DNA from: Candidatus Pacearchaeota archaeon
GTDB lineage: Archaea > Nanobdellota > Nanobdellia > Pacearchaeales > JAPDKA01
Assembly: GCA_038840695.1 (NCBI GenBank)
Contig: JAWBVE010000001.1
Coordinates: 44,896 to 108,895 of the forward strand
Length of the DNA stretch: 64,000 nucleotides
Reading direction: 5' to 3'
The position numbers and the translations under genes are program-made. How positions within the stretch are numbered: the first letter of the stretch is position 1; the number at the start of each line of letters is the position of its first letter. Shown piece after piece: positions 10,153-49,063 of this stretch. The notes beneath the pieces were generated by a model. The model worked only from the letters and a program-made list of their open reading frames with translations, was not told the DNA's origin and searched no databases.

Positions 10153-10228
10153 TATCGAAAATAATATAAACAATAAAAATTTGAAAAATAAAGAAATTCG
10201 AGATTGTACAAATAATAAAAGAGGCAAA

Positions 10229-10603: not shown

Positions 10604-10605
10604 AA

Positions 10606-11997: not shown

Positions 11998-12058
11998 ATA
12001 AAAATTTTAAAAACTTAAAAATTAAATAAAATTTAATAAATTTAATTAGAGCGTTGTA

Positions 12059-14593: not shown

Positions 14594-14610
14594 TAGTAAG
14601 ATTGGTATTT

Positions 14611-26338: not shown

Positions 26339-27718
26339 TTAAAAGTAGCGCTCGAGGTCAATATTGCTAACTTTCTTTGAGTATTCTTTCCATTCATTAA
26401 TCCCGAGCTTATAAAGTGAATCTATAATAAAATCACCTAACCATTTTCTTAGCATTATACTTCTATTCATGTATTCAAGTGCCTCGTGCAAATTTCTCGG
26501 GAGCATTTCAGCTTTTTCTTCATGATAATAATCTTTCTTCTCGCACTCACCAAGCTCAAGCCGAGCCTCAATGCCGCTCAAGCCAGCAGCAAGTATGGCT
26601 GCTATGCATAAATAAGGATTGCAGGAAGGATCTGGAGAGCGATATTCAACTCTTGTTTGGTTTTCATTGCACGAAACCTTGCAGAGAGCTGTTCTATTTT
26701 CATAATCCCACGAAATGACCGTCGGCGCTTCATAACCAGGCACAAGCCTCTTATATGAAATTGGCAGAGGATTTGTTATGGCAGTTATTTCTTTTGCATG
26801 TTTTAAAATTCCTGCTATGTATTGCTTGGCAATGCTTGAAAGTTGCTTTTTTTCATAATCATAGAATAAGTTATAAATTGTTCCGTTGATAGTTACTGCT
26901 AAGCTCTGATGTAAGTGCATGCCACTACCATTCACATCTTCTTTAAATTTTGGAATAAATGATGCTTTATGCTTATGCAATTTTGCAACTTCTTTTATTA
27001 ATGATTTTAATGTCATAGTTGCATCAGCTATTCTTAATGCATTTCCATATTCCATAACTATTTCATATTGATAAGTTGCAACTTCAGTATGATATTTTGC
27101 CCTTTTTATTCCCATTTTTTCTAAATTGTTCATTATTTCTTTCAGAATTTCGTCAATTACCGTTGATGGCTGAATAAAATAGTGATTATTTTTAATTGTA
27201 GAATCAGTGAGTAAATTTATTATGTCATAACTTTCAGGCAAAAGCAAGAACTCAACTTCAGGAGCAAAGTGAGCATGATATTTAGTTATTTTATTTTGGT
27301 AAATTTCTTTTACTCTATTTTCTAAAGTTTTTTCCATCATTTTTTCAACTTTTTTCAAAATTGTTCGAGAGCATCCAGCAAATGGTTCGAGATTTGGCTT
27401 ATAAACATCACATATGACCCGTGCCGTATTATTCAGCCATGGAATTTGAGTAAAAGTTTCCCAATCAGGAACTAAAATTAAATCACTTTCTGTTGGTGGG
27501 ACTATTTTGCCAAAAGCAGAAGAGCCATCAACAGAAGTATAGCCTCTTGCTAAAGCTTCCTTGGATGTGGTAACTTCACGAATTCCTCCTTGCATGTCAG
27601 TAAATTGACATTTTATAAATGAAATTTCTTTAGGAATTTTTTTTGAAGAAAAAGCCGCCTGTGCCCTTTCTCTTAATTCTTCTTCACTTATTTTTTCTTC
27701 TAGCACTTTTTCATCCAT
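26339..27718 (-). CDS. glnA: Glutamine synthetase family protein (type I-like)
   Basis: FIPKFKEDVNGSGMHLHQSL, HTEVATYQYEI and RSPDPSCNPYL are GS catalytic motifs. The track ORF extends to 27829, but those 37 residues look spurious, so I prefer ATG 27718 (MDEKVLEE). Confidence 0.85.
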   Translation of the reverse strand: MDEKVLEEKISEEELRERAQAAFSSKKIPKEISFIKCQFTDMQGGIREVTTSKEALARGYTSVDGSSAFGKIVPPTESDLILVPDWETFTQIPWLNNTARVICDVYKPNLEPFAGCSRTILKKVEKMMEKTLENRVKEIYQNKITKYHAHFAPEVEFLLLPESYDIINLLTDSTIKNNHYFIQPSTVIDEILKEIMNNLEKMGIKRAKYHTEVATYQYEIVMEYGNALRIADATMTLKSLIKEVAKLHKHKASFIPKFKEDVNGSGMHLHQSLAVTINGTIYNLFYDYEKKQLSSIAKQYIAGILKHAKEITAITNPLPISYKRLVPGYEAPTVISWDYENRTALCKVSCNENQTRVEYRSPDPSCNPYLCIAAILAAGLSGIEARLELGECEKKDYYHEEKAEMLPRNLHEALEYMNRSIMLRKWLGDFIIDSLYKLGINEWKEYSKKVSNIDLERYF

Positions 27719-27895
27719 TCTGAGTTCAATTTTTAGCTTTTTAAAATGTTTTGTCCTGAATTTTACTTCCAAATAGAAATAAAAAAGGAAAGTTAGAAAA
27801 GCTAAAAGCTTTTTGCTTGCTTTTTGCATTGCTAATTTTTGCTTAAAATTTGTTAAACTTGGTTAAATTTTAATATTTGCTATACCTTTAGTTTC

Positions 27896-31789: not shown

Positions 31790-33040
31790 ATGAGATATGA
31801 AGATTATATTGATCTAAGCTATAAGCCCAAGGCTGACGAGCTTGTTTGTCATTTCTATGTTGAAGCCAAGAGAGGAAAAGAGTTGAGGCGAGCGATTGGC
31901 GCTGTTGCTGCAGAAAGCAGCATTGGAACGTGGACAGAAGTCACGACGGAAAAATCATATATGGCAAGACTTGCTGCAAAAGTTTTTGAAATAAAAAAAG
32001 TTAGCAAAAATTCTGCCAATGTGAAAATTGCTTATCCTCCTGAGCTTTTTGAACCATCAAACCTGCCAAACATAATGTCGAGCATAGCAGGAAATATTTT
32101 TGGAATGCGAGACGTTGAGTGGCTAAGACTTAATGACATAATCTTTCCTAAGCATATTGCAAAAAGTTTCAAAGGGCCGAAATATGGCATACAAGGAATA
32201 AGAAAAATTACAAAAGTAAAAGATAGGCCTCTTATTGGAACAATAATCAAGCCAAAGATCGGTTTAAATGCAATAGATCATGCAAAGATTGCTTATGAGG
32301 CATGGCTTGGTGGCTGTGATATTGTCAAGGATGATGAAAACCTAGCTAATCAGGCATTTAATAAATTTGAAGATAGACTAAGAGAGACGCTTGCGATGAA
32401 AGAAAAAGTAGAGAATGAAATTGGTGAGAAAAAAATTTATATGATAAACATAACTGCAGAAACAAATCAAATGCTAAGGCGAGCAAGGCTTGTTGAGGAT
32501 TATGGTAATGAATATGCGATGGTTGATATAATAACTGTTGGATGGGCAGCTTTGCAAACATTGCGCGATGCAGATTTTAACTTAGTATTGCATGGTCATA
32601 GAGCAGGGCATGCAGCGATTGATAAATATAGGAAGCATGGAATAAGAATGAAAGTTATTGCAAGGCTGGCTCGGCTTATTGGTTTAGATCAGTTGCACAT
32701 TGGAACAGGTATAGGAAAAATGTTTGAAACTACTGAAGAAGTTCTAGAAAATAGGAAGGCTTTGGTTGATGAATTCTATGGCTTAAAGCCTGTCATGCCC
32801 GTTGCTTCAGGAGGCTTACATCCGCTTATAATTCCGAAGCTCTATGCAATTTTTGGCAAGGATGTTGTGCTGCAATTTGGTGGAGGCATTCACGGCCATC
32901 CTCAAGGAACACTTGCAGGAGCAAGAGCTGTAAGACAAGCATTAAATGCTGTATTGCAAGGCATAGCCCTTGAGGAATATGCAATAGTGCATAAAGAGTT
33001 AAGGGCTGCATTTGATAAGTGGAAGTATGGGAAGGCATAA
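31790..33040 (+). CDS. rbcL: Ribulose-1,5-bisphosphate carboxylase/oxygenase large subunit, form III(-like)
   Basis: 416 aa. Catalytic motifs are intact: GTIIKPKIGL, DIVKDDENL (carbamylated Lys context), HGHRAGH, GGGIHGHP. No small-subunit gene is nearby. Confidence 0.9.
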   Translation: MRYEDYIDLSYKPKADELVCHFYVEAKRGKELRRAIGAVAAESSIGTWTEVTTEKSYMARLAAKVFEIKKVSKNSANVKIAYPPELFEPSNLPNIMSSIAGNIFGMRDVEWLRLNDIIFPKHIAKSFKGPKYGIQGIRKITKVKDRPLIGTIIKPKIGLNAIDHAKIAYEAWLGGCDIVKDDENLANQAFNKFEDRLRETLAMKEKVENEIGEKKIYMINITAETNQMLRRARLVEDYGNEYAMVDIITVGWAALQTLRDADFNLVLHGHRAGHAAIDKYRKHGIRMKVIARLARLIGLDQLHIGTGIGKMFETTEEVLENRKALVDEFYGLKPVMPVASGGLHPLIIPKLYAIFGKDVVLQFGGGIHGHPQGTLAGARAVRQALNAVLQGIALEEYAIVHKELRAAFDKWKYGKA

Positions 33041-36282: not shown

Positions 36283-36504
36283 TTTTCAAAAGCATATGCA
36301 AGATATGCAAGCATTGTATTATTTATTTGACTTTCCTTTTTTTATTTAATTTTTTATTTAATTGTGTTTTTTTATTTTTCAAGAGTATTCTTTCACTTTT
36401 ATATTTTTTTAATCATTATTCTTTGCAGATACCTTCCTTCTTATATTCTCATTTAAGTATATTTAATTTTGATTTAATTTAAGAAGTTGGTCTATTTTAT
36501 TTAT

Positions 36505-39033
36505 TCAATCTTCGATATCAATTCCCAACTGTTTAAGGGCTTCTTTTATTTTATTTTCATAGTCTTCCTTCTCTATAGACCCCCCGTGTGCAACTATCTT
36601 AATCTCTACATCATCAAACTTAGATTGAATATAATTTAAGAGCCCTAAAATTTGAGAAACCCTGCCTTTAGGAATCTTTATCAAAGGTAATTCTAATCTC
36701 GTGATAGTTTCTTTTTGCGATTTCTCATCAACTGCAGTTTCATTTTTTACTTTTTCTTCTAATAGCTTATCCTCAGGCTTAGCTTCAAATTCTCTCTCGC
36801 AGATTGTACTATCTATTAAAATTTCATTTTCACTGAATCCAACAGTAGGATTTTTTTTCCAATAAACTGGGATTATTTTTCCATCTTTTAATTCACCAAG
36901 CCCAAAAATTCCTTGCATTACCCCTTCTTTGATAGATTCTTCTAAAGCCAATTTGCTTAAAATCCTGTCCTCACCAAGGGTCTTTAAGGAGTTTTCATAG
37001 ATGTTCTTAGTAGAAACATATTTTCTTCCTTCAAGATATCTTCCTTTAATTGCTAGAGGTCCAATTTTTTCGATTATGATCTTTTCTGACTTGAGCTTTT
37101 CAAATACGTCGGCAGGAAGATTTATTTCAAATCCATATGTGGGAATGCCTAAGTCTAACTCTTCTAATTTGTTTTTTTGTGGAACATAAATAAGACGATA
37201 GACTTCTCTTATTTTTAATTTTATATTTTCCTCTTCTTTCTTTAGAGAATTTTTAATCTCAAGTTTTTGCTCTTCAGATAGCTTAAGTGATCTGTCTATT
37301 TGCAAATCTTCAAATGCAATTTTTCTTTTTAAAGAATTTTGTAATTCTTGTTTTTTTGATTCTACTGGAGCCAAAAAGAAAATAGTATTTCTATTAACTC
37401 TCTTAGAATTTCCTTTATTTTCTATTATATCTTTTATGAAAGTTTTATTGTTTTGTTTTAAGATAACTAATTTTAGGTTTGTATCATCAGGGATGTCATT
37501 TGAATTTTCTGGCCATAAGTAAGTTTTAAGCTTACCCTCTTTGATACAATTTTTGAGGTATTCAAATTCCTGTTCCTCAACAGTATAATCTTCTATATTC
37601 TCCATTTTATTTAACAAAATGCGATTAATGTTAGGTTGATTTGTGAAAAATATTTTTCCATCTTGATACTGTAGATAGAACAATCTTTCTTTTAACATAT
37701 TTACTGCTTCAGAAACTATGCTGGAAGGGATATCAAAATAAGATAATGAATAAGATAATAACCTTTTGATTTCATTTATATTTGTGCCTTTTTCTGGTCC
37801 TCCAGAAAATGAGTAAAGGAATATTGTTGTAGAACAACGTGTTCCCAACTGTAAGCCTTTGTAACTTTCTCCTAAAGAATTATCCACTTGCTTTGAACCA
37901 GAATTTTTATCAGTTATGTCAGCAGCAATCACACTATCAAATTCATTTCCAATATGTTTCAACAACTCTCTTCTTATCTCTGGATTTTTTAGATTAACGT
38001 CAGCTAAAGATATATAACTTATGTTTTGATTTTTAAGATTGTAAAGGACTAACGACAATAATCTAAGAACACCTCTGGTCCTTTGAAATGTTGGAAAACT
38101 GCCCCATCTGTGATAAAAACATTCAATAACCTCTGGCATAAATGGGTAAGATTCATTAAATTTTTTCTTATACTCGGATGGTTCTACGCCTGGTGGTAGA
38201 ATGTTTTCTTTTTTTAAATAATCGACAATATCAGACACTATTTTCTTAGCTTCATTCTCATCTATTTGTGAAAACAACCTTTTTCTTATGATGCTCGATA
38301 TTTCATCTTCTTCTACAGGAGTATATGATTTTTCAACTCTTCCTAATCTTTCTGATAGCAGGTTAAGCAAGTGTTGATCTTCTTCACTATATTGAGTTCT
38401 AGAAGGGGAGGTTACGAGCAAAATACATTTGTCAAGAGAGCTAACAGCCTCTGTTAATCTTTTTATAAAAGATAATACTTGAGAATCAAAAGTAGATTCA
38501 CCAACTTTTATGCCTCTTGCCGGAATTAGATATTCAACAAGTTCATCAATCAACAACATAACTGGCTGTTTAGATTTTAGAATTTGTCTTATCTTTTCAC
38601 CAGATGGAACTATTCTTCCCTTAAGCTCTTTCACTTTTCCTGTGAGTTGTCTTTCCAATTCCTCCCAGATTATCGTGTCGGAAGGAGAAAGTTTATCGCC
38701 AACAAATACAAAAACATTTGATTTCCACTCTTTAGCTTTGTGATAAAGGCCTATTAACGCGTGTGTTTTTCCTCCTCCAAATGGTGTCTGTAATTGAATT
38801 ACTGGATCACCCCCTTTGCCTTTTAATCTTTTTTCTACTACCTTGTACAAATTGTCTAAACCTTTTGTAACAAAAGTCTTTTTGAAAAATGTTTCAGCAT
38901 CTTTGTATTCATCAGGACCCCGTCTATTGAAAACTTCCCATAAATCAGCAGCAAAGATGTCCATTGTTAGTCTACCTTCTAGTATATCGCTATGCGGAAC
39001 TGCTATTGTATGAAATGGCTTCATTTTATCCAC
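36505..39033 (-). CDS. DUF499-family P-loop ATPase (third gene of helicase-methylase-ATPase operon)
   Basis: The N-terminus FHTIAVPHSDILEGRLTMDIFAADLWEV...FFKKTFVTKGL...LQTPFGGGKTHAL (Walker A) and PVMLLIDELVEYL (Walker B) match DUF499/COG1483 as I recall it. The alternative start ATG 39024 forms an ATGA overlap with the methylase stop. Confidence 0.8.
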   Translation of the reverse strand: MDKMKPFHTIAVPHSDILEGRLTMDIFAADLWEVFNRRGPDEYKDAETFFKKTFVTKGLDNLYKVVEKRLKGKGGDPVIQLQTPFGGGKTHALIGLYHKAKEWKSNVFVFVGDKLSPSDTIIWEELERQLTGKVKELKGRIVPSGEKIRQILKSKQPVMLLIDELVEYLIPARGIKVGESTFDSQVLSFIKRLTEAVSSLDKCILLVTSPSRTQYSEEDQHLLNLLSERLGRVEKSYTPVEEDEISSIIRKRLFSQIDENEAKKIVSDIVDYLKKENILPPGVEPSEYKKKFNESYPFMPEVIECFYHRWGSFPTFQRTRGVLRLLSLVLYNLKNQNISYISLADVNLKNPEIRRELLKHIGNEFDSVIAADITDKNSGSKQVDNSLGESYKGLQLGTRCSTTIFLYSFSGGPEKGTNINEIKRLLSYSLSYFDIPSSIVSEAVNMLKERLFYLQYQDGKIFFTNQPNINRILLNKMENIEDYTVEEQEFEYLKNCIKEGKLKTYLWPENSNDIPDDTNLKLVILKQNNKTFIKDIIENKGNSKRVNRNTIFFLAPVESKKQELQNSLKRKIAFEDLQIDRSLKLSEEQKLEIKNSLKKEEENIKLKIREVYRLIYVPQKNKLEELDLGIPTYGFEINLPADVFEKLKSEKIIIEKIGPLAIKGRYLEGRKYVSTKNIYENSLKTLGEDRILSKLALEESIKEGVMQGIFGLGELKDGKIIPVYWKKNPTVGFSENEILIDSTICEREFEAKPEDKLLEEKVKNETAVDEKSQKETITRLELPLIKIPKGRVSQILGLLNYIQSKFDDVEIKIVAHGGSIEKEDYENKIKEALKQLGIDIED

Positions 39034-41708
39034 CCGCCTAATTTACTTTGAGTTTTTAAGTTTTTAATTTTTTCCATTAGTCTTTCCTTCATGCCTGAAG
39101 GGAAACACCCCTCTAATAATTTTTTTTCTTTGCTTTCATTAGGTAAGCATTGAGTTATTGCTTGAACTACTCTGTAAAATGCTTCACTGTTACCATAAGA
39201 CTCTGAAAGCTTCTTTAATAATTTTTCTTTATCTCCTTTCTCCCATAAGAGCAAAACATAATGCAGAACATCTATCAACTCTTCAGACTTTTCTAAATCT
39301 TTTATGTCTCTTTCTTTTGGACCTAAAACTCTTATGAATTCCTTTTCTTTTCTTATGAATCCTTTATTCCACTCTCTTTCAAGGTTTATCCCAAAGCTTT
39401 GTGCAAGTTTTCTTGCTTCATCAAAATGAACTTTTGCTTCACCAAAATTCCACCTCCACAAAACATAAAATCTTGTTAATGGTGAAACTTCTCCTGTAAA
39501 GCCATCGTGAAGAATTTGTCTAACTGCAAAATTAGCTGTAATCTCTCTAATCTCTTCCAATAGTTTGTCTGCCTTTACTTCTTTACCTTCATCATCAATA
39601 ACTTTCTCATATTTTCCAAAAACCTCAATTCCTGCACCAATTGCAGCAATAAAGAAGTCTGCTCCAGAAATTCCTTCTTGCCACAATCTTTCAAGCTTTT
39701 TATCAAGATAATCTCTTAATTCTCTTCTTACTTTTGGATATAAACCAATGCCTTTCTTTTGGATTTTTCTGGCAACGATGTAGATTGATGATTGAAGTGC
39801 TGCAGTTTCTTTAGCCAACAATCTGGATTTCATCTCTGTGCTAATAGGCCAAGATGCTGTTATAGTTAAACCAGATTCTAAAAGAGCATTTATAATAGTT
39901 TCCCAACCAGCAGTTGTTTTGTGAGCATAAACAATAATAGCAATACTATTTGGTTTTAAAACCCTATAGATTTCCTGGAAAGCTTTTTTGATCATGTCCT
40001 CAAAAAATTTTTTTGCTTTTTCACTATTTCCTTGTCTTATAGGATTTGAAACTATTTCTTCAGATTTTGGAGTTAATGGCGTCATAAACAAATCAGGATA
40101 TAAATCACCAATACTTCTTTTAAGCCATACATAAAAGAAATCAGAAAGTTCAGCATAATTAATATTGTCATAATACGGCGGATCTGTGAAAACCGCATCA
40201 AAAAAGTTGTCAGGATAGGGTAGAGAGGTAGCTGAGGATTGAGTGACTATTGTTTTTTCTTTAATATATAAATTATTCTCTAAAAAGAGATTTATCCAAT
40301 CGAAATTAGATTTCCAACCGAATGAAATTCCTATCGGATTTGTTTCAGTATAATCATAAATAAAAGGTATAGCCTGTCTTCCAAAAATCATTGACGGCAA
40401 CTCTCTCCCATTGTGCCAAGATTGAAATGAAGTATCATAACTTGCTAATCTATCTATCCCTAATCCCAAATAACTCCCCACGGCCCTTACATACTCTTCT
40501 TCATATCCTTCTTCAAGCATCTTCTTGTATGCAAGCCTTACCTTCTCTGTAAAAGTTATCAATGCTAACTTCTGCCGTGAGTTGAAAAGGTCACCCCATT
40601 TTGTTATACCATATCCTCTACCTGCAACTGTTGTTGGATCATTTACATTCATCTCTTCATCAGGCACAGGATCAAAGCCCCATTCTTCCATTAGATGTTG
40701 TCTTTTCTTTTCCAAATATTTCTCTGCTTTTTCGTAAGCTTCTAAATCTTTTCCTGTTGCTATTCTGTAGAATTTTCCTTGTTTTTTTGGATTATGTAAA
40801 ACAACAGCAACCATTCTCTGTCCAGCTCTGCCTTCTTGGAATTGTTTTCTAACATCTTTATCAGAAACAACATTCCCACAAACCAAGCAAGTTGCTATTG
40901 CTCTTGCAACAGTTCCTTTTTCAGGATCAAAATCTTTGGGTATTTTTTCATAACCAGTTCCAACAATCTTGAATTCTACTTTCTTACCTTTAACATAAGG
41001 ATAGAGAGAAATTTGTCTTCCTGGTTTTTTAGCAAGCCAGAATTGTCTCATTAAAGGAATCTCTGCCTCACATCTTGGATTTTGACATTTTATTGTTCTT
41101 GCCCAGATATAACCAACAGGAATACTTTCTTCAACTGATTTTCCAAAATGGGTTTTCTTTTCTTCTTTATCATTAGGATAGAATTGTGCTAATTCTTTCT
41201 TTGCTTCTTCTAAAACCCAATCTCCCCACTTCTTAACATCTTTTACAAGCTTTTCGCCATATTTTTGAGGATATTCCAAAGTGCATTTTTCAATTAAAAC
41301 TGCTACAGGATTATAATCATTAGCATAAGTTTCACAACCAAGCCTTAAGGCTTCTAATGGAATGCTTCCACCACCAGCAAAAGGATCAAGAACTTTTGGT
41401 GGTTTTCTATTATTAGCTTCCAAAATATCTTTTCTTGCCCTCTCTATCAAGTTTTTATTGTTAGAATTCTCCCATTTGCATAATTCAATAATAAAATTTC
41501 TTTTTTTGTTCCATTCTTCATTATTTTTTGCTGCAGGAATCAAAGCAGCATAAGCAGTTGCTCTTGAACTTGCTAAAGGACGGCGAGCCCACCAAATATG
41601 TAAAGTGGATATATGACCGTGTCTTATATTTTTCTCTTTAGCAGATTCTTCTGAAACTTCTTTAACAGGAAAACTTTCTTCAATAAATCTTTTATCCATT
41701 TTTTTCAC
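39021..41708 (-). CDS. DUF1156-type DNA methyltransferase (N6-adenine/N4-cytosine) with Zn ribbon
   Basis: N-terminal FIEESFPVKEVSEES...STLHIWWARRPLASSRA (DUF1156). Motif I LDPFAGGGSIPLEALRLG, motif IV FTDPPYYDNINY, and Cys4 CQNPRC...CLVCGN. Confidence 0.85.
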   Translation of the reverse strand: MKKMDKRFIEESFPVKEVSEESAKEKNIRHGHISTLHIWWARRPLASSRATAYAALIPAAKNNEEWNKKRNFIIELCKWENSNNKNLIERARKDILEANNRKPPKVLDPFAGGGSIPLEALRLGCETYANDYNPVAVLIEKCTLEYPQKYGEKLVKDVKKWGDWVLEEAKKELAQFYPNDKEEKKTHFGKSVEESIPVGYIWARTIKCQNPRCEAEIPLMRQFWLAKKPGRQISLYPYVKGKKVEFKIVGTGYEKIPKDFDPEKGTVARAIATCLVCGNVVSDKDVRKQFQEGRAGQRMVAVVLHNPKKQGKFYRIATGKDLEAYEKAEKYLEKKRQHLMEEWGFDPVPDEEMNVNDPTTVAGRGYGITKWGDLFNSRQKLALITFTEKVRLAYKKMLEEGYEEEYVRAVGSYLGLGIDRLASYDTSFQSWHNGRELPSMIFGRQAIPFIYDYTETNPIGISFGWKSNFDWINLFLENNLYIKEKTIVTQSSATSLPYPDNFFDAVFTDPPYYDNINYAELSDFFYVWLKRSIGDLYPDLFMTPLTPKSEEIVSNPIRQGNSEKAKKFFEDMIKKAFQEIYRVLKPNSIAIIVYAHKTTAGWETIINALLESGLTITASWPISTEMKSRLLAKETAALQSSIYIVARKIQKKGIGLYPKVRRELRDYLDKKLERLWQEGISGADFFIAAIGAGIEVFGKYEKVIDDEGKEVKADKLLEEIREITANFAVRQILHDGFTGEVSPLTRFYVLWRWNFGEAKVHFDEARKLAQSFGINLEREWNKGFIRKEKEFIRVLGPKERDIKDLEKSEELIDVLHYVLLLWEKGDKEKLLKKLSESYGNSEAFYRVVQAITQCLPNESKEKKLLEGCFPSGMKERLMEKIKNLKTQSKLGGWIK

Positions 41709-44700
41709 TTTTCTCCTTAATTTGGTTTAATGTAATAAGATATCTTACAATCTCAATTTTCTCTTCTGGGTTCAAATTTTTTGCAGGATTTTGGATGATG
41801 TGTAATTCCGGCTTTTTTGCACAATTGAAAACAACATATAAGTAATAATCATCCCCAAATCTCTGCGCTTTAAACCACTCGTTTTGTGTTAAAACTATGC
41901 TTCCAACATCTGCCCTTGCCTTAACTTCAATGTATCTAATTTTACCTTCTTTATCGTAAGACCTTATATCAAATCCAAGGTTCTCAGAAGACACATCTTC
42001 AGGATTTCTACCATTAACTCTTTCATATTTCATAGCTTCTTCCATTCCTATTCTTTCAATTTCCTCATCACTTTTCATGTAATCAGAAACAGTTTCTGCT
42101 GGTTTTACTCTAATAATTCCAACAAATTTTGGCATATCCATAGTTAATGTTTGCTCTCTTTCTATTCGGTCTTTTAATTCTTCCAATGCTTTATGATATT
42201 TTTTCAATTGCTCTTCTTTATTTCTTATAGCTAAATCAACATTTTCTCCCCTTTCCTTTCTTTCATGAAGCTCAATTATCTCCCCATCTAACTTAACAAG
42301 AAAATATTCTAATGACTTTATTCCATATTTTTCTTTGATTTTTGCCTCTCTCTGCCTTTCTTCTAATTTCTGTTTTTTATAATTCTCCATTTCAGAAATG
42401 ACTTTTGAAACAATCCTCTGTTCTGTTGGTTCAATATTAATTTGCTCTTTTTGGGTATCTCCTTCAACAAGATCCCATAAAATTGTTGGAGCTACCGATT
42501 CAACTTCATTTTGATTAACATAGATTGAAAAAAGTTTTTTGCCCACGATATTGTTTAAACCGTCCTTTATTTCGCCTTCATAAAAGACAATATATCCATC
42601 AAGCCGCCCTTCAGGATCAATAAACACTGCACCTTTTTTCAAATCATTACTGCATGTTCTTTCTACATATTCAAGAACTGCTTCAAATAAGGGATGGCCA
42701 AAAGATACAAATTCAGCATCAGGATTATTAAATGCAATATCCTTATCAAAAGTAATCTTTGGATATGATTTTAGCAAAGAACCAAATTTTCTTCTAAAGT
42801 AATCCTCCTCAGCTATAACTCTAATATCATAAGGAATAGATTCAATTGTAAGGAATCCATCTTTTCTTATTTTAAATTTTCCTCCAGCAAATGAAAATGC
42901 TTTTTTAAAGAATGCTTCTGTGTATTCTGGGATTAACTTATATTCTCTAGCTTTATTAGCCATTTCTTTGATTCTAGTGTAATCAATATATCGAGAAGCA
43001 AGACTTTCGCCCAGATTATCTTTAACTTTTGAGATATAAGCTTCATCGACTTTAATATCAATTTCTTTGAGAATTTCTTCTCTACTTCTAGCACCTGCAG
43101 CAGCTTCTATAAGCAATTGTTGCAAATTTTTTCCAAAGAAAACTTCCCCAATTACATCAAATACTTTGTCACTACCTAAAACATTCTTTATTTCTTCTAA
43201 TTTATCAAATATTCTACTCAGAACTTCCCCTTCTCTTGTATCTTGAGCAACAAGGTTAAAAACAAAAACTTCGTATTTCTGACCATATCTGTGAATTCTT
43301 CCCATCCTTTGTTCTAGTCTGTTGGGATTCCAAGGAATATCATAATTTATCATTAAATTACAAAACTGAAGGTTGATACCTTCACCAGCAGCCTCTGTGG
43401 CTACCAATATTTGTTTCTCATTTTTGAATATTTTTTCTGCTTCTATTCTTTGATTTAAATTCATTCCACCATGTATGGTTACGGTGGTATAACCCCACTG
43501 CCTGATCTTTTTTTCAAGATACTCTAAAGTATCACGAGACTCTGTAAATACGATGACTTTTTTATTAGGATATTTTTTGTTTAAATCTTCTAAAGTCCTT
43601 TTTAACTCCTTTAATTTTACTTCAGATTCTTCTTTTACTATTATTTTGGCCTTCTCGATAAGATTTTTCAAAGTTTCTATCTCTTTCCTTAATTCCTCCT
43701 TGTTTTCTGCAACACTCAAAGTTTCCCACAATTCTTCTTCTTTCCATCTATCTTCCTCACTTAAATCTTCGACTGCTTCAAAATCAAAAATATCGGATTC
43801 GAATTTTATCTTAGAATCAGCTTTTTTCTCTAATTCTTCTAGCTTTGCCTTTCTTCTTTCGAGAGAATTTAGTAGTGCATAAACACTCGAAGCCAATCTT
43901 CTTTGTAGAATAACAAGAGCAAAAGCAATATTCCTCTTCTTTTCTTTAGCTAATGCTTTATTATATTGCTCATTAACGTACTTTGATACTTCATTATAAA
44001 GATGTTTTTCTTTTTCAGATAAATTGAATTTAAGAGTTTTAATATATCTTGGTAGAAATAATGGTTCTCCATTGAAACCTTTCAAATCTTCTTTTATTCT
44101 TCTTATGAAAAGCGGATTATCCTTGTTTTCAATAGACTGTTGTAGCATTTCACTAGTCGCAAAAAAACCAGGCTCTAATAAGTCTATAAATAATCTAAAG
44201 TTCTCTGGGTCTCCTTTATGTGGTGTGGCAGTAAGAAAAAGCAGGTTATCAGAATTTCTAGAAAGAATTTCACCAAGTCTATACCTACGGGTTCTTTGTG
44301 TTTTTTCACCATAGATATAAGCACTCATTTTATGGGCTTCATCTACTATAACTAAATCAAAATGAGTAGCTATTAATGATGGTAGTATATCATCTTGTTT
44401 TGCAAAATCTATAGAAGTTATAATTTGATTTTCCTTCTCCCAAACATTTTCTCCATAATGAGCATCAACAAATCCTCTATCAATTACAACAAAACTTTCT
44501 TCAAATCTTTCTTTCATTTCTCTTCTCCATTGATCTTTTAAATGACCTGGAACAACAATTAAAATTCTTCTGATGAGGTTTCTCAATTTTAATTCTTTAA
44601 CTATCAAGCCAGCCATGATTGTTTTGCCAGCACCAGGATCATCTGCAATAAGAAATCTTATTCTTGGTAATTTTAGAATATAACCATAGACTGCTTCGAT

Positions 44701-45018
44701 TTGATGAGGAAGCGGGTCTACTTTTGAGACATTAAGAGCTAAAAATGGATCGTAAAGAGATGCGTATCTATATCTTTTCCCTTCTAACGCCAAAAATACT
44801 TTATGTGGTTTGCTTAAAAAATCACTTTCGATTTTTTCAAGAGCAAGGTTGTTGATCTCATTTAAAGGAATCAGTTGATCTATATGAGTTCCTGAATGAA
44901 TTGTAGAACCTACGATACGGATGTAATCTTCTAATTTATCGATTCTCTTAATTTCGATTGGTTCTTTCCATCTTTTACTTCTTACGATTGTACCAACTTT
45001 TAATTCTTCAACCTCCAT
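41692..45018 (-). CDS. SNF2-family helicase fused to C-terminal DUF3883/PD-(D/E)xK-like nuclease domain
   Basis: Helicase motifs: LIADDPGAGKTIMAG (motif I), DLVIVDEAHKM (DEAH), LLFLTATPHKG, ILVATEAAGEGINLQ, and NYDIPWNPNRLEQRMGRIHRYGQ (motif VI). C-terminus: GFDIRSYD...IRYIEVKAR...VLTQNEW...DDYYLYVV. The track uses TTG 45027; I prefer ATG 45018. Confidence 0.85.
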   Translation of the reverse strand: MEVEELKVGTIVRSKRWKEPIEIKRIDKLEDYIRIVGSTIHSGTHIDQLIPLNEINNLALEKIESDFLSKPHKVFLALEGKRYRYASLYDPFLALNVSKVDPLPHQIEAVYGYILKLPRIRFLIADDPGAGKTIMAGLIVKELKLRNLIRRILIVVPGHLKDQWRREMKERFEESFVVIDRGFVDAHYGENVWEKENQIITSIDFAKQDDILPSLIATHFDLVIVDEAHKMSAYIYGEKTQRTRRYRLGEILSRNSDNLLFLTATPHKGDPENFRLFIDLLEPGFFATSEMLQQSIENKDNPLFIRRIKEDLKGFNGEPLFLPRYIKTLKFNLSEKEKHLYNEVSKYVNEQYNKALAKEKKRNIAFALVILQRRLASSVYALLNSLERRKAKLEELEKKADSKIKFESDIFDFEAVEDLSEEDRWKEEELWETLSVAENKEELRKEIETLKNLIEKAKIIVKEESEVKLKELKRTLEDLNKKYPNKKVIVFTESRDTLEYLEKKIRQWGYTTVTIHGGMNLNQRIEAEKIFKNEKQILVATEAAGEGINLQFCNLMINYDIPWNPNRLEQRMGRIHRYGQKYEVFVFNLVAQDTREGEVLSRIFDKLEEIKNVLGSDKVFDVIGEVFFGKNLQQLLIEAAAGARSREEILKEIDIKVDEAYISKVKDNLGESLASRYIDYTRIKEMANKAREYKLIPEYTEAFFKKAFSFAGGKFKIRKDGFLTIESIPYDIRVIAEEDYFRRKFGSLLKSYPKITFDKDIAFNNPDAEFVSFGHPLFEAVLEYVERTCSNDLKKGAVFIDPEGRLDGYIVFYEGEIKDGLNNIVGKKLFSIYVNQNEVESVAPTILWDLVEGDTQKEQINIEPTEQRIVSKVISEMENYKKQKLEERQREAKIKEKYGIKSLEYFLVKLDGEIIELHERKERGENVDLAIRNKEEQLKKYHKALEELKDRIEREQTLTMDMPKFVGIIRVKPAETVSDYMKSDEEIERIGMEEAMKYERVNGRNPEDVSSENLGFDIRSYDKEGKIRYIEVKARADVGSIVLTQNEWFKAQRFGDDYYLYVVFNCAKKPELHIIQNPAKNLNPEEKIEIVRYLITLNQIKEKSEKNG

Positions 45019-45023
45019 TTTTC

Positions 45024-45257
45024 TCAACCTTTAGACATTTCTTTAGTAGCTTCTTCAGGGCTTATTAACTTGTATAACCTCTTTCTTGAGTCTTCAGGGA
45101 ACCAACCCCTTTGTTTCATTTCAGATAAAATAATACTTACCATCTTATCTTTATTTAATATTTTGGAAGTCTCTTCATAATTAAATTCTTTATTTTTAAA
45201 CTTAGTCCAGAGTTTCTAATACGCTTTCATTATCAACCTAGGTAAAGGTTCTACCAT
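45024..45257 (-). pseudogene. Small leader ORF of the defence operon interrupted by an in-frame TAG
   Basis: Hand translation gives MVEPLPRLIMKAY*KLWTKFKNKEFNYEETSKILNKDKMVSIILSEMKQRGWFPEDSRKRLYKLISPEEATKEMSKG*. The TAG is at 45216-45218. The TGA stop lies 5 nt before the helicase ATG. TATA-like TTATAAATA and TTTATAAA sit just upstream. Confidence 0.35.
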
Positions 45258-45473
45258 TTTACATCACCTATATTTATAACATAATTAATAGTTTAAAAAG
45301 TTTATAAATTTATCAACTTCAACGCAAGAGCTAATCCAAATATAGCAGCAATAATGAGCAGATATACGCTACAAACACTAGGTTCAATCTTGCATATTAG
45401 CTGTGAGATTATTATAGCAATTTCAATCCAAACTCTTCTTCACTAATTTAAATAAACTTACCAAATATTTAAT

Positions 45474-46295
45474 TCAATTTACGTTAAATACATAAAAAAG
45501 TTCTTCTCCCTTTTTTATTTTTTCATATCCTATCTTGTTTTCATTGAGCAGGTTTTCAAACCAGGCTCTTTCCATCAGATGCCTTTTTCCTCCAAGACTT
45601 CGCAAAGAGAAACTAACAATTTTAGTGCCCCCCAGCATTAAAATTTTCTTGCTAAATCCTGGCTCAATGGCTTCGAGCGCATCTAGAACTTTTAGAAAAA
45701 GATAAATTGTTTTGCTTTCTTTAAATTTTGTGAAATCAATTGATGAAATATCAGCATTGATTATTTTTGCATTTATTTTCTTTTTCTCTGCGAATTTCTC
45801 GAGAAGTTCTGTTATGTATCCATCAATATCATAGCCAACATAGCTACATTGAGAAAAATCAAAACCATACTTATAAAGCCCAAGCAAATTAAAACCACAA
45901 CCAAAGTCAATAATTTGTGTTGGTTTTGTCTTTGCCAAGAACTCAATAAGCCAAGGATAGCCTTTTTCTCTTTCTCTTGCGGCAAAATTAGCCTTTATTA
46001 CAGCATCAATAATTTCATCCTTATCAATATTATCCAAAAAAAATTTAAATTTTTTATAGAATTTTGGCTGCATTGGTGTTAGGATTTTTCGCAAAAATTT
46101 TCGAACTGCTTTAATATAATCTTTAATATTCTTGTCTTTTCTCTCAAACCTCTCAAACTTTTGCACAATCTTTAAAGCAATCTTCAAAACAAAGGCCCTG
46201 TTAAGCTTTCTAAATTCTGGTTTTTTACAAATTTCTTCAATCTCTTCTTCAATAAGCTCTTTTTCCTGTTTTTTCCCTTCAAGCTTTTCTTTCAT
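45474..46295 (-). CDS. FmrO (Arm/Rmt)-family 16S rRNA (guanine1405-N7)-methyltransferase homologue
   Basis: IIDFGCGFNLLGLYKYG...YVGYDIDGYITELL...IYLFLKVLDALE...KIVSFSLRSLGGKRHLME...EELFYVF is collinear with ArmA motifs as I recall them: ILDFGCGFNPLALY / YHAYDID / VVFLLKMLPVL / FVISFPIKSLSGKEKGM / NELVYI. Confidence 0.65.
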   Translation of the reverse strand: MKEKLEGKKQEKELIEEEIEEICKKPEFRKLNRAFVLKIALKIVQKFERFERKDKNIKDYIKAVRKFLRKILTPMQPKFYKKFKFFLDNIDKDEIIDAVIKANFAAREREKGYPWLIEFLAKTKPTQIIDFGCGFNLLGLYKYGFDFSQCSYVGYDIDGYITELLEKFAEKKKINAKIINADISSIDFTKFKESKTIYLFLKVLDALEAIEPGFSKKILMLGGTKIVSFSLRSLGGKRHLMERAWFENLLNENKIGYEKIKKGEELFYVFNVN

Positions 46296-46936: not shown

Positions 46937-49063
46937 ATGAAAATCCAGATTAAGGCTGAAGAGCATAGAGGAGAGGATGATTTCATAGTAGATAAATCAC
47001 TTGGCCTATTTGCTGTTTTTGATGGCGTGCATAATTGGCGAGGATATTTTCCAGCGAGCATTGTAAAAAAGCGAATTCTTGAAAGATATGATGGCGATCC
47101 ATCCAAGCTAGAAAGCATTTTGCTTGATTCAGATAAAGAGTTAAAAGAGTATGGCATAGCTACGACTGCAGCTATTGTTGCTTTGCACGATGACATTATG
47201 CATGTCTTCTCAGCTGGCGATTCTGTAGTTTATTTAGTAAGGAAAGATAAGGGCGAATATAAGATAGAGAAAATTACTGAGGAAGATAATGCTTACTATG
47301 AATTTATTAGGAATGGCAAGGAGCAAGAAGCAAAAGCAAGAAAACAAATTCTTGAAAGAACTTTGACTAATGGAATAGGAATTCTTAAAGAAGAGAAAAT
47401 AAAGTATAAGCAAATAAAAATAGAGCCTGAAATGAAAATTATTCTTGCTACGGATGGAGTAACGAGATATGTTGGCAATGAGCTTCTACAATCTGTTGCG
47501 ATTGGTGATACAAGCCCAGAGCAGTTATTCTATGCTATAAAAGAAAAAGAAAGTAAAGAAGGGAGCAAAGATGATAAAACCTTAGTTATTGTTGACTTTG
47601 AAAATTACAAGCCAAAAAAGCTCGAAATTCCTGAAGTTCCGAAAAAAGAACAAAAAGCGAGTATTTCTTCTCTCCTTGAAGAAGCTGAAAAAATAATGCG
47701 AATAAGTGAAGATGACGAGCTGCCTTGCTTTATTGCTGGCAAAAAAGACCGAGCAATCGAGAGCTTATGCGAGGAGGAAAGTGGGGAAGAAGCTGAAGAA
47801 GGGGCTGAAGAGGGGGCTGAGGAGGAAGGATATGGGTATGAGTTCAGGGGGGATGTAGAGATAGAGGCAGAGGCAGAAATTTGTGCAGGAAAAAAGAAAA
47901 GAAAAGAAGATGAAGAGGATGAGTATCTTTTAGAAGAAGCTATATTAAAATCAGAGCAAGCAAAGCTAAAGCAAGTGCCACAAGTGCCAGAAGACACAGT
48001 AGCTAAAATATTGAGTATATTGGGCATATCAAAGGATGGAGTGCATAGAGAAGAAGGAGAAATGGAAGAAATTGGTGAAGGTGAAGAAACTAGCAGGAGT
48101 GATCGGGATCGAGCATCAAATCAAAGCCACGAAAAGCCTTGGAAGAAATTTGTAAAGACAATAGCTCTTACTTTAGCTATTGCAGCTTCTGGTGCTTTAA
48201 GTATTCTTGGCACGAGCAAAATTTACAGGAGTTGTACAAAAATGCAAACAATCAAGCCTATACCCACACAAATCTATCAAGTTCCTCCAGTCACTCAAGA
48301 AATTTCGCAAGTAACAGTAACTCAGACTCATCCTTCTCAAACTCAAGAGCCGCAAATTTATTCGCTAATAAAAAATGCAAGGAAAAGAGTATGGCTTGAT
48401 AACAATACAAAGAAGCCTGATGGCAATGAGCTTGAGTTAAAAGTTATTGGTGATGCATGGGACATTTCTGGGATGCAGGGCGTTAAGTTTGATGAACTTT
48501 ATCTTTTGCTAACTTTTGAAGATGGTAAAAAAACTGTTTTTAAGTTTGATGAAAAGGGGAAGACAAAAGGCTATATTACAGATGGCAAGCCTAACTCAAA
48601 CATAAAAACTGCTGAAGTTGTTTCATTGTCTAAAACATCAAAAGGCAGGCTTTTGAATGTTTATGCAACGTATGTAAAGGAAAAAAGTGAAGGAAAGAGT
48701 GAAGGAAAGAGTGAAGAAAAGAGCAGAGAAAGTAAAAGCAAATCAAGCGCCGGCTATGGTGGCTATAGTTATGGCTTATCAAAGCTTAATACGCTTAATG
48801 CAGGCCTCTTCGAAATTGATACAAAAAAGCTGGCCCGTGCTTATGAGAAAGATAAAATAAGCAAGATAAGCCACAACACAATAAGCTACAATACAATTGT
48901 TGATATTTATTTAAATCATAGCGTTGAGGATGCAAGGCAATATTTATCAGAGCTGCTTGGCTATGAGATATCTAAAAAGCACTTTTATGCTTTACTCGAT
49001 GAGTATTTTGGTGGTATAAGAAAAAAGCCAAGAAAACAAAGAGAGCCTATAATCAAAGCCTAA
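46937..49063 (+). CDS. PP2C (PPM) Ser/Thr phosphatase fused to acidic linker, TM helix and large extracytoplasmic domain
   Basis: PP2C motifs FAVFDGVHNWRG, TTAAIVAL, VFSAGDSVVYLV, ILATDGVTRYV, DDKTLVIVDF. Then E-rich stretch (EEAEEGAEEGAEEEG), TM segment IALTLAIAASGALSILG, and a ~280-aa C-terminal domain with a (KSEG)n stretch. Confidence 0.75.
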   Translation: MKIQIKAEEHRGEDDFIVDKSLGLFAVFDGVHNWRGYFPASIVKKRILERYDGDPSKLESILLDSDKELKEYGIATTAAIVALHDDIMHVFSAGDSVVYLVRKDKGEYKIEKITEEDNAYYEFIRNGKEQEAKARKQILERTLTNGIGILKEEKIKYKQIKIEPEMKIILATDGVTRYVGNELLQSVAIGDTSPEQLFYAIKEKESKEGSKDDKTLVIVDFENYKPKKLEIPEVPKKEQKASISSLLEEAEKIMRISEDDELPCFIAGKKDRAIESLCEEESGEEAEEGAEEGAEEEGYGYEFRGDVEIEAEAEICAGKKKRKEDEEDEYLLEEAILKSEQAKLKQVPQVPEDTVAKILSILGISKDGVHREEGEMEEIGEGEETSRSDRDRASNQSHEKPWKKFVKTIALTLAIAASGALSILGTSKIYRSCTKMQTIKPIPTQIYQVPPVTQEISQVTVTQTHPSQTQEPQIYSLIKNARKRVWLDNNTKKPDGNELELKVIGDAWDISGMQGVKFDELYLLLTFEDGKKTVFKFDEKGKTKGYITDGKPNSNIKTAEVVSLSKTSKGRLLNVYATYVKEKSEGKSEGKSEEKSRESKSKSSAGYGGYSYGLSKLNTLNAGLFEIDTKKLARAYEKDKISKISHNTISYNTIVDIYLNHSVEDARQYLSELLGYEISKKHFYALLDEYFGGIRKKPRKQREPIIKA

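Follow-up and report, generated by a model that had tools for sequence, protein, structure and literature searches.

In the window, i.e., the whole stretch of 64,000 nucleotides analysed here, the genes hmaA, hmaB and hmaC almost certainly constitute, judging from their sequences, an intact and compact Hma system, also designated Type-1 BREX-related. The locus is largely ordinary, being a further member of a named family of anti-virus systems and not an undescribed module. What is new here, as read from DNA and protein comparisons, are the bounds of the cassette carrying the genes, a hypervariable module within the HmaB methylase and the pseudogene status of the small leader gene preceding hmaA. 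For the locus as a whole, the explanation favoured by us, with somewhat better than even confidence, is an ATP-dependent restriction-modification (RM)-like system whose specificity would be set by this module and which would have originated as a cassette.

Identity and Organization of the Gene Cluster

An earlier note on this DNA mentioned a triad of helicase, methylase and ATPase to which a defence-annotation tool had given a name. The system in question is Hma, named by Payne 2021 (PADLOC), reported from 1,500–2,400 taxa and renamed in 2026 as the Type-1 (DUF499-centred) BREX-related (BR) system (NAR 2026, PMC12839542). All three genes are encoded on the minus strand. The first, hmaA (41692–45018), specifies a RapA-like Swi2/Snf2 helicase of 1108 aa that carries a PD-(D/E)xK nuclease at its C-terminus. 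The product of hmaB (39021–41699) is an alpha-class N6-adenine DNA methyltransferase of the DUF1156 type, 892 aa long, in which strands 2 and 3 are separated by a large insert, and that of hmaC (36505–39024) is an 839-aa DUF499 (BrxC-like, ORC/Cdc6-type) AAA+ ATPase without an N-terminal HEPN domain. Each protein ranks best against its own PADLOC model (7.7e-206, 4.2e-148 and 5e-118 for HmaA, HmaB and HmaC, respectively, with one gene each). The PADLOC definition of Hma requires the genes to be adjacent on the same strand, separated by no more than three embedded genes, with no pseudogene among the three; here, they overlap by 8 and 4 nt, enclose no embedded genes and comprise uninterrupted ORFs totalling 2,839 codons with every catalytic residue intact. 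The predicted synteny was likewise recovered, as among the 35 informative genome loci, i.e., those in which the upstream sequence extends for 8 kb or more, hmaB precedes hmaC on the same strand in all cases and hmaA does so in 34.

Identical genes are annotated in GCA_038846035.1 (contig JAWBQH010000007.1, Candidatus Pacearchaeota) with the starts ATG 45018, ATG 41699 and ATG 39024. The NCBI label of the window is also Candidatus Pacearchaeota, in agreement with the attribution to a DPANN archaeon made from the letters alone. The earlier note was correct in describing three large, overlapping and co-directional genes, and the ATGA overlap of hmaB and hmaC is exact at 39021–39024. Its 17-nt overlap of hmaA and hmaB, however, applies only when hmaB starts at GTG 41708, whereas the start at ATG 41699, favoured because homologues begin with M-x-DKRF, results in 8 nt (41692–41699). 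The profile matches came out as it had predicted, with SNF2-rel/ResIII/Helicase_C plus NOV_C (= DUF3883) in HmaA, DUF1156 plus D12/N6_N4 MTase in HmaB and DUF499 in HmaC; all quoted motifs are present in the respective genes, and the catalytic residues are unbroken, being invariant across homologues of all three proteins. Markers of the other BR types were not found in neighbouring ORFs by Pfam and PADLOC, neither DUF3780 and HKD nuclease of Type 2 nor PglZ and iSTAND of Type 3, and HmaA itself gave no PLD/HKD match.

Helicase-Nuclease and ATPase

HmaA shows Pfam matches to Helicase_C, ResIII, SNF2-rel_dom and NOV_C. Its SNF2 motor core with motifs I to VI is encoded at 43282–44721 on the minus strand (Pfam: ResIII at aa 103–270 and Helicase_C at aa 475–582, numbering of the 1111-aa ORF), and the NOV_C (DUF3883) PD-(D/E)xK nuclease domain at 41794–42060 on the same strand (Pfam NOV_C, matched along the entire profile at 3.1e-24). 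The motor motifs DDPGAGKT (aa 126–133), VDEAHKM (225–231) and QRMGRIHRYGQ (570–580) are followed by the nuclease motifs GFDIRSYD, IEVKAR, LTQNEW and YYLYVV (1015–1063), and in 31 homologues the Walker A residue K132, the DEAH box 226–229 and motif VI are as invariant as the nuclease residues D1017, E1031, K1033 and E1047. The latter correspond to D1084, E1104, K1106 and E1121 of Halomonas HmaA, which are needed for nicking and defence (Liu 2024). This Halomonas protein alone protects E. coli from T4 via its helicase and NOV_C nickase, with infected cells showing growth arrest instead of lysis (Liu 2024). The characterization of the triad as experimentally uncharacterised does not hold for HmaA, but it stands for the roles of HmaB and HmaC. 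By sequence, the closest solved relative of HmaA is RapA (6e-41), and this match takes in HmaA from residue 23 and RapA from residue 74 onwards, the latter being within the N-terminal region of RapA. The Pfam hits and invariant residues provide the Swi2/Snf2 motor and C-terminal PD-(D/E)xK nuclease by which the Type-1 BR helicase is recognised; the published description also includes an N-terminal Tudor domain (NAR 2026, PMC12839542).

In HmaC, Pfam DUF499 was matched at 6e-30, and the motifs FGGGKTHAL (aa 82–90) and LIDE (158–161) comprise Walker A residues G83–T87 and Walker B residues D160/E161 that are invariant in 66 sequences. A search of the HmaC sequence against the PDB returned no match. 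The AF2 model (pLDDT 83.9), on the other hand, has Acinetobacter BrxC (9zll/9zdx, E 2.5e-7) as best Foldseek hit, followed by ORC/Cdc6 proteins, and Pfam and Foldseek together place in HmaC the BrxC-related ORC/Cdc6-type AAA+ core of the Type-1 BR ATPase. The description of the latter includes a C-terminal RRM/ferredoxin-like domain (NAR 2026, PMC12839542), and at the site expected for this domain DSSP assigns zero strands in the model.

The Methylase and Its Hypervariable Module

HmaB matches DUF1156 (Pfam, 3.8e-23) as well as MethyltransfD12 and N6_N4_Mtase, with the DNA-methyltransferase matches passing the cut-offs. Its motifs are WWARRP (aa 36–41), DPFAGGGS (105–112), DPPY (506–509) and four cysteines (C205, C210, C271 and C274), and D105/G109–111 of motif I, the DPPY residues and the four cysteines are invariant in 72 sequences. 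Alpha-class DNA N6-adenine methyltransferases typically have a DPPY motif IV and the order motif I, insert, motif IV. In the AF2 model (pLDDT 83.8, pTM 0.78), strand 2 at residues 123–128 is followed by an insert at 131–482 and strand 3 at 483–487, so that the DUF1156 N-terminus and the 4-Cys TRD insert after core strand 2, which define the N6 methyltransferase of Type-1 BR systems, are both seen. Searching the PDB gave no match to the HmaB sequence and, for the model (Foldseek), just generic Rossmann methyltransferases at E > 1e-3.

At the end of the insert, residues 412–484 (40248–40466, minus strand) form a hypervariable, recombinationally swapped module. Across this part, DNA identity falls to 38–47% over about 300 nt, whereas the flanks hold 85–97%. 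The module in the window is 100% identical to that of homologue P0121 from locus L086 at a backbone identity of 94%, and merely 23% identical to that of P0122 from locus L082 at a backbone identity of 92%; the same module is also found on backbones that are just 64–66% identical. Among 121 homologues, 63 module types were distinguished, in contrast to 2–4 for control segments. This typing drew on full-length HmaB matches, as the module alone returned nothing when used as query against the word-indexed protein database. Neither hmaA nor hmaC shows a comparable patch, and in hmaC none was found to co-vary with the module, the similarity of this gene not tracking module type: compared with L086, the window shows 99–100% identity in the module and about 85% in hmaC, and compared with L082, 45% and about 91%, respectively. 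For hmaA, the comparison with L086 is confined to the last 270 nt of the gene covered by that contig. Residues 412–484 probably set the DNA specificity of HmaB, and this candidate determinant would contact DNA; among the PDB matches to the model, there was no informative DNA-bound relative on which to place it. As HmaB is the sole carrier of a hypervariable module, restriction probably reads its target via HmaB, similar to BREX and to RM of Types I and III.

Leader Pseudogene, Candidate Promoter and Probable Origin of the Cassette

Upstream of hmaA, the earlier note listed a small leader ORF. Its stop TGA at 45024–45026 is indeed separated from the ATG of hmaA by 5 nt, but in the window this gene is a pseudogene. 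The reading frame of the wHTH-like leader extends back to ATG 45257 (45024–45257, minus strand) and carries, relative to the intact 83-aa copy of L082, a 15-nt in-frame deletion and an in-frame TAG at 45216–45218, at the position of Ser14 of intact copies. Recoding of this TAG was considered and rejected, as the homologue has Ser there and TAG terminates 5 of 50 ORFs of the genome, which marks it as a true stop. The leader family comprises 55 cluster representatives, all of about 80–90 aa, and Pfam matches of the leader to MarR_2 and TrmB stay below threshold. In L083, the leader is likewise broken next to intact hmaABC, which suggests that it is dispensable after establishment.

A TATA-like box, TTTATAAA (45301–45308, minus strand), precedes the leader ATG by about 45 nt. 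Cassette homology starts at this candidate promoter element, the first of the blocks that all loci with a leader have in common; both this box and the SD-like GGTGAT are retained in the window, which lacks the upstream portion of the conserved promoter region. Within the conserved promoter, an operator was sought, yielding only imperfect AT-rich inverted repeats that are not significant against the AT-rich background and whose upstream arm is absent in the window. Elsewhere, leader and promoter, often together with an integrase, head several different RM-like cassettes; the search for these loci ran on a single sequence, as the family alignments were too divergent to serve as queries.

The bounds of the transferred 8.9-kb cassette (36453–45312, minus strand), consisting of putative promoter, decayed leader, hmaA, hmaB, hmaC and a 3′ tail of about 50 nt, became apparent from blastn and from sliding-window identity. 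DNA identity is about 90% to L082, from a metagenome-assembled genome (MAG) of Aenigmatarchaeota, and about 84% to L083, from a Nitrosocaldaceae MAG, and collapses to background at both ends, with unrelated flanks in the window, L082 and L083. This comparison supports horizontal transfer across archaeal phyla, part of which may be mis-binning because the taxon labels derive from metagenome bins. Hence, the earlier suggestion of an acquired island is sustained with regard to transfer, but base composition lends it poor support. The block is weakly more AT-rich, as had been noted by eye (GC 0.324 and GC3 0.223 versus 0.341 ± 0.044 and 0.273 ± 0.046 in other ORFs), and composition and codon usage were discarded as evidence of foreign origin, with GC3 deviating by about 1 SD and the Jensen-Shannon distance inside the range of other long genes. 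The neighbour proposed to be an accessory methyltransferase (45474–46295) shows a weak FmrO-type rRNA-methylase match and is positioned outside the transferred block. In accordance with the note, neither a separate specificity subunit nor an integrase is found nearby; another PADLOC-recognised defence gene is likewise not found there. A wider defence island was also considered and dismissed, as ten neighbouring proteins, including a 2272-aa protein and AT-rich island genes, gave no PADLOC match. Remnants of an integrase were not detected in the window by tblastn at E ≤ 1.

Proposed Mechanism and Alternative Explanations

In the favoured RM-like mechanism, HmaB would act as an alpha-class N6-adenine DNA methyltransferase marking a short motif in host DNA, recognised mainly via residues 412–484. 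HmaA would be the effector, a RapA-like Swi2/Snf2 translocase whose PD-(D/E)xK nickase nicks or cuts unmarked incoming DNA, and HmaC, as a BrxC-like ORC/Cdc6-type AAA+ ATPase, would probably assemble or license the complex on DNA. The roles earlier proposed for methylase, SNF2-nuclease and DUF499 ATPase, i.e., marking self, restricting and sensing or regulating, equal the model of the 2026 comparative study. The 8.9-kb cassette probably came in as cargo of archaeal integrative elements forming one family, the conserved end of which would consist of integrase, promoter and small wHTH leader; here, the integrase would have been lost and the leader has decayed.

An unlikely competitor is a self-sufficient HmaA, i.e., an infection-triggered, abortive-infection-like helicase-nickase to which HmaB and HmaC would be dispensable, unless they function independently of it, and which would work without epigenetic discrimination of self and non-self. 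It would explain the protection and growth arrest conferred by Halomonas HmaA alone (Liu 2024), and in the same Halomonas study passage through a host expressing HmaB left T4 unaltered. Moreover, hmaB and hmaC are missing from about 15–20% of hmaA neighbourhoods. T4 DNA is glucosyl-hydroxymethylated, and because of this hypermodification the passage is a weak, uninformative test of HmaB. The strict, near-universal gene order, the overlapping genes at this locus and the invariant catalytic residues of HmaB also speak against an autonomous HmaA, and the shuffled methylase module is hard to explain with it unless sequence specificity matters for defence. Methylation by HmaB of RNA or a small molecule, which would render the triad non-epigenetic, is very improbable. 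Such a role could be read from the generic small-molecule and RNA Rossmann methyltransferases retrieved by Foldseek and from weak Pfam matches to UPF0020 and Cons_hypoth95, but it is opposed by the above-cut-off matches to D12-class and N6_N4 DNA methyltransferases, the PADLOC matches to a Type II MTase model (2e-63) and PglXI, the DPPY motif IV in alpha-class order, the fixed position beside a DNA translocase-nuclease gene and the TRD-like shuffling of the module.

Low probability is also given to a BREX-like exclusion, with methylation marking self, foreign replication being blocked without cleavage and the HmaA nuclease having a minor or backup function. Type-3 BREX has counterparts of all three proteins (BrxHII, PglXI and BrxC), and a relationship has been proposed in the literature (including NAR 2026, PMC12839542); however, PglZ, the component that defines BREX, is absent from the locus, and the nuclease that HmaA has in addition to BrxHII possesses invariant residues and is needed for defence in Halomonas. 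The decayed leader could mean that expression is altered or lost, and just as improbable as exclusion is, in our judgement, a silent relic whose operon became unexpressed or started to decay once the integrase had been lost and the leader inactivated. The nonsense codon and deletion in the latter, the lack of an integrase trace in the window and the missing upstream part of the promoter would fit, whereas the uninterrupted reading frames with intact catalytic residues, the retained TATA-like box and SD-like sequence and the combination of broken leader and intact hmaABC in L083 argue against it.

Beyond the RM-like mechanism itself, a tentative two-part reading is put forward, to which, taken jointly, we would give slightly less than an even chance. 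In its one part, the module of about 73 residues at the C-terminal end of the HmaB insert, just before motif III/IV, would set specificity, and not the conserved Zn-ribbon "TRD apex"; it would be exchanged by recombination between cassettes, with HmaA and HmaC being generic and restriction being read via the methylase. In the other, the integrase/promoter/wHTH-leader unit would be a chassis of hot-spring archaea carrying interchangeable RM-like cargos, namely Hma, Type IIG and HKD-Snf2 with Eco57I-like methylase. If true, this chassis would by analogy be the archaeal counterpart of mobile RM units controlled by C proteins.

As an Hma system, the locus adds little, the family being catalogued in thousands of genomes and partly validated. 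Its modest value is threefold. A DPANN archaeon is seen to encode an RM-like system of several genes in intact form, RM and CRISPR having been reported to be under-represented in this group and compact single-gene defences to dominate. The bounded, shuffled HmaB module provides a testable hypothesis on specificity and on the coupling of restriction to methylation, for which the pair of window and L086 versus L082 represents a natural experiment, and the shared unit of promoter, leader and integrase suggests a way in which mobile elements of archaea swap defence cargo.

Comparison With Known Systems

With Type 3 BREX (BrxC, PglXI, BrxHII, PglZ, BrxA and BrxF), the system shares the BrxC structures as best matches of the HmaC model and PADLOC matches to PglXI (1e-18) and BrxHII (2.8e-117). 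It differs in the extra nuclease domain of HmaA, the DUF1156 N-terminus of HmaB and the absence of PglZ, BrxA and BrxF from the locus; PglZ was not found among the flanking ORFs, and the cassette is limited to the leader remnant and the three genes. Class 1 DISARM (DrmA, DrmB, DrmC, DrmD and DrmMI) likewise combines an Snf2 helicase (DrmD model, 2.4e-152) with an N6-adenine methylase, but HmaA scores far better against the HmaA model, DrmD lacks NOV_C, and no gene for DrmA/DrmB (DUF1998), DrmC or PLD is nearby. Type III RM (Mod and Res) resembles Hma in having an ATP-dependent SF2 motor that bears a PD-(D/E)xK nuclease at its C-terminus and works beside a methyltransferase. In Type III enzymes, Mod holds the sole specificity module, which is shuffled between alleles, and HmaB is similarly the only protein bearing such a shuffled module. 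Hma differs from Type III RM in its motor, which is of the Snf2/RapA and not the Res type, in a methylase of the alpha class that has DUF1156 and in an obligatory third gene for a large AAA+ ATPase, and no Type III model ranks above Hma in PADLOC. The leader alone is reminiscent of the C proteins of RM systems, as a small HTH-type gene directly upstream, presumably co-transcribed and common to unrelated RM cargos, but neither a sequence relationship to them nor an operator was found, and the copy in the window is a pseudogene.

Compared with Hma as described, which has no wHTH leader, the window copy carries a decayed one, and it represents the minority compact form, with 63–67% of Hma systems carrying embedded genes. 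About 56% of Type-1 BR ATPases have an HEPN fusion (NAR 2026, PMC12839542), which HmaC lacks. The host of this copy belongs to DPANN, which the text of the 2026 survey does not name. Apart from these features, the proteins, their order and their strand are the same as in Hma/Type-1 BR systems, with nothing essential being different.

Family Assignment and Integrity of the Hma Operon

On its minus strand, the window carries three long ORFs in head-to-tail order, hmaA (helicase-nuclease, 41692-45018), hmaB (DNA methylase, 39021-41699) and hmaC (ATPase, 36505-39024), all of which are annotated genes on contig JAWBQH010000007.1 of GCA_038846035.1, a MAG labeled Candidatus Pacearchaeota (DPANN lineage) in which an identical stretch was found. 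The ATGA overlap of hmaB and hmaC claimed in an earlier note on this DNA is exact, whereas the 17-nt overlap of hmaA and hmaB holds only with the upstream GTG chosen there and shrinks to 8 nt with the homolog-supported ATG start. All motifs quoted in that note were located at the expected places, and its Pfam forecasts were borne out for the helicase (SNF2-rel_dom, ResIII and Helicase_C plus NOV_C, the present-day name of DUF3883), the methylase (DUF1156 plus D12-class and N6_N4 methylase families) and the ATPase (DUF499). In PADLOC-DB, the Hma models are the top hits of the respective proteins (HmaA 7.7e-206, HmaB 4.2e-148, HmaC 5e-118), with DrmD, BrxHII, PglXI and generic Type II methylases as runners-up. 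Judged by its sequence, the operon is a textbook member of Hma, a named, widespread and partly validated defense family, and the overall interpretation previously given to it is sound and the finding correct. Payne et al. (2021) had defined Hma ("helicase, methylase, ATPase") on the basis of 1,638 operons from 26 phyla; hence, the earlier statement that a defense-annotation tool (PADLOC) had named the triad was right. More recently, it has been renamed Type-1 DUF499-centered BREX-related system, found in 2,446 taxa including 203 archaeal ones, with HmaC, HmaB and HmaA derived from BrxC, PglXI and BrxHII of Type-3 BREX, respectively (2026 NAR paper, PMC12839542).

The order of the triad is kept across genomes, and the catalytic residues of methylase and helicase are unbroken, as alignment showed. 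Scanning the genome collection with an HmaC profile gave at least 580 loci from many bacterial and archaeal phyla. Of the loci retained, 35 reach at least 8 kb beyond hmaC on its upstream side. There, all 35 carry hmaB and 34 carry hmaA, on the strand of hmaC and with the order unchanged. A compact operon as in the window was found in only 6 of these 34, while the others show gaps of 0.4-3.9 kb that probably hold embedded genes. Such extra sequence lies between hmaA and hmaB and/or hmaB and hmaC in most Hma loci from other genomes (L002, L012, L016, L020, L021, L027-L029, L034, L036, L039 and others) and is consistent with published embedded defense genes: in a 2024 preprint, 62.7% of 1,485 curated Hma systems had other defense genes embedded among the hma genes. 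Invariant residues comprise motif I (D105, G109-111), the DPPY at 506-509 and the four cysteines in HmaB (72 sequences), Walker A (G83-T87) and Walker B (D160/E161) in HmaC (66 sequences) and, in 31 HmaA sequences from genome loci, Walker A K132, DEAH 226-229, TAT 263-265 and motif VI as well as the nuclease residues D1017, E1031, K1033 and N1046-E1047.

By sequence, the closest solved relative of HmaA is RapA, with the match taking in part of the RapA N-terminal region. The AlphaFold2 model of HmaC (pLDDT 83.9) is nearest to the recently released structures of Acinetobacter BrxC (9zll and 9zdx, E 2.5e-7, about 560-580 aligned columns), with ORC/Cdc6 structures ranking after these; this resemblance of the model independently supports the BREX relationship. 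HmaC begins straight at the DUF499 core and is thus without HEPN fusion. The HmaB model (pLDDT 83.8, pTM 0.78) has a Rossmann core into which about 350 residues are inserted between strand 2 (123-128) and strand 3 (483-487), and a Foldseek search with it gave no informative solved relative.

Transfer of the Cassette and Its Chromosomal Surroundings

The closest HmaC homologs are from an Aenigmatarchaeota MAG (91% identity) and a bin labeled Nitrosocaldaceae (84%), compared with about 50% for typical bacterial proteins. At the DNA level, the cassette at 36453-45312 is about 90% identical to the former locus (L082) and about 84% to the latter (L083), and at either end a few tens of bases suffice for identity to drop to background. 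The flanks are unrelated among the three, with an FmrO-like gene and an unannotated 224-aa ORF in the window, a tyrosine integrase and a Lon-like gene in L082 and cas4-cas1-cas2 in L083. Sharply bounded DNA identity between unrelated flanks therefore makes horizontal transfer of the cassette well supported, with the caveat that the taxon labels are those of metagenome bins. The 84% identical cassette adjoining cas4-cas1-cas2 (L083:1-12666, GCA_038896295.1), binned to a different archaeal phylum, represents either a recent cross-phylum transfer or a mis-binned DPANN contig. Position 40644-41991, running from the NOV_C-encoding 3' end of hmaA into the beginning of hmaB, is 96-97% identical to L086 from a second Aenigmatarchaeota MAG but only 81-84% to L082, while for hmaC the ranking is reversed, L082 being closer to the window. 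These opposite rankings indicate that the cassette is a recombinant mosaic, beyond the variable module described below.

The suggestion of an acquired island stands as far as transfer is concerned but not in its compositional part, as GC3 is only about 1 SD below that of other ORFs and codon usage is ordinary. Other PADLOC-recognized defense genes are not present in the window, which agrees with Hma systems occurring mostly outside defense islands (2024 preprint). With genes for a RuBisCO large subunit (31790-33040, plus strand) and glutamine synthetase (26339-27829, minus strand) a few kb away, the Hma block is set among ordinary chromosomal genes. The supposed accessory methyltransferase beside the operon (45474-46295, minus strand) turned out to be a marginal match to the 16S rRNA methyltransferase FmrO (29.8 bits versus a cut-off of 27) without a PADLOC match, and it lies outside the transferred cassette. 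Farther on, a SpoIIE-like gene is found at 46937-49063, inside which the operon-bearing contig JAWBQH010000007.1, 34 kb long, ends (about 47905).

In composition, the strongly AT-rich stretch at 9448-16065 (gene GC 0.23-0.29 and GC3 0.16-0.23, versus about 0.34 and 0.27 elsewhere) fits a foreign or surface-glycan island far better than the Hma block does; it holds a family-2 glycosyltransferase gene and several ORFs without Pfam or PADLOC match. A 2272-aa ORF at 1058-7876 (minus strand), with one bacterial Ig-like domain (Big_7) as sole Pfam match, presumably encodes a giant surface protein. Such proteins are common in DPANN genomes.

A Leader Gene Shared With Other Cargos

The small ORF noted ahead of the helicase gene (45024-45257) does trace to a real gene, intact with 83 aa in L082, but in the window it is decayed by a TCA to TAG change at codon 14, TAG being a genuine stop codon in this genome, and by a 15-nt deletion removing a conserved-length stretch ahead of the D-x-RKR-x-Y-x-L 'wing'. 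The L083 copy is frameshifted. The leader family, with 55 cluster representatives each about 80-90 aa long, has no Pfam model and matches the winged-helix families MarR_2 and TrmB only below threshold. It does not belong to Hma systems in general. On metagenome contigs, leader copies 79-94% identical, together with a conserved promoter of about 130 bp, are placed 4-5 nt upstream of differing cargos: a Type IIG RM enzyme (PADLOC 4e-197), a GHKL ATPase pair, an AP-endonuclease-like gene, Hma, or an HKD+Snf2 helicase paired with an Eco57I-like methylase, behind which one locus carries an RmrA-like HTH-peptidase and DUF4411. DNA homology among these loci ends exactly at the leader stop codon. Examples of the unit from hot-spring metagenomes are L082:29-1692 and L088-L095 (e.g., L089:9497-12248, L093:427-7262 and L094:8963-18196), besides 45024-45312 in the window. 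In most such loci, the leader is preceded by a divergent tyrosine integrase, whole or in fragments; none was found in the window. In our reading, these loci are integrative elements of one family, in which the integrase/promoter/leader end is conserved and the RM-like cargo can be exchanged, and the window copy would be immobilized. The leader may plausibly act as a regulator in the manner of RM controller proteins. Inverted repeats in the promoter were indistinguishable from the AT-rich background.

A Swappable HmaB Module and the Proposed Mechanism

Sliding-window comparison of the cassettes revealed one segment of about 300 nt (about 40240-40600) at 38-47% identity in every pairwise comparison, the remainder being at 85-97%. 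It corresponds to HmaB residues 412-484, directly ahead of motif III/IV. Compared with the window protein, HmaB from L086 (P0121) has a 94% identical backbone and a module identical in 73 of 73 residues, whereas the L082 protein (P0122), at 92% backbone identity, shows only 23% in the module. Among 121 HmaB sequences, pairs whose backbones are at least 90% identical are bimodal in module identity (above 80% in 67% of pairs, below 50% in 27%), and the converse case, with backbones sharing only 64-66% identity but modules sharing 91%, is also found. Single-linkage clustering at 70% resolved 63 module types, versus 2-4 for control segments of equal length. The Zn-ribbon part of the HmaB insert, treated as apex of the target-recognition domain in the 2026 NAR paper, is conserved between close cassettes. 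In the cassettes compared, of which L086 covers only the last 270 nt of hmaA, neither hmaA nor hmaC shows a module-like patch, and HmaC similarity does not track the HmaB module type.

The claim that the system is uncharacterized is partly outdated: Halomonas HmaA alone protects E. coli against T4, requiring the helicase and the NOV_C nickase with catalytic D1084, E1104, K1106 and E1121, while HmaB was without effect on T4 and its role, like that of HmaC, was left unexplained (Liu et al., 2024). An autonomous, Abi-like HmaA, to which this sufficiency of a single protein is favorable, is the main rival to an RM-like scheme, for which the swappable module in the methylase speaks. In the latter, HmaB would mark self DNA, the Snf2-nickase HmaA would restrict and the BrxC-like ATPase HmaC would assemble or license. 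From homology, the Halomonas HmaA experiments and the module pattern, we lean moderately toward this division of labor. The same RM-like model as in the earlier note has been put forward in the 2026 NAR paper, and later mechanistic work on Hma was not found in the literature search.

The Hma triad itself being already known, interest lies mostly in the HmaB module and the shared leader/integrase chassis, both of which are testable. A role of the module as specificity determinant was not found described in the Hma literature searched. We infer that the module may set the sequence specificity, with restriction being read through HmaB. In Type I HsdS and Type III Mod proteins, target-recognition domains are shuffled, and the pattern of the HmaB module is that of these domains.
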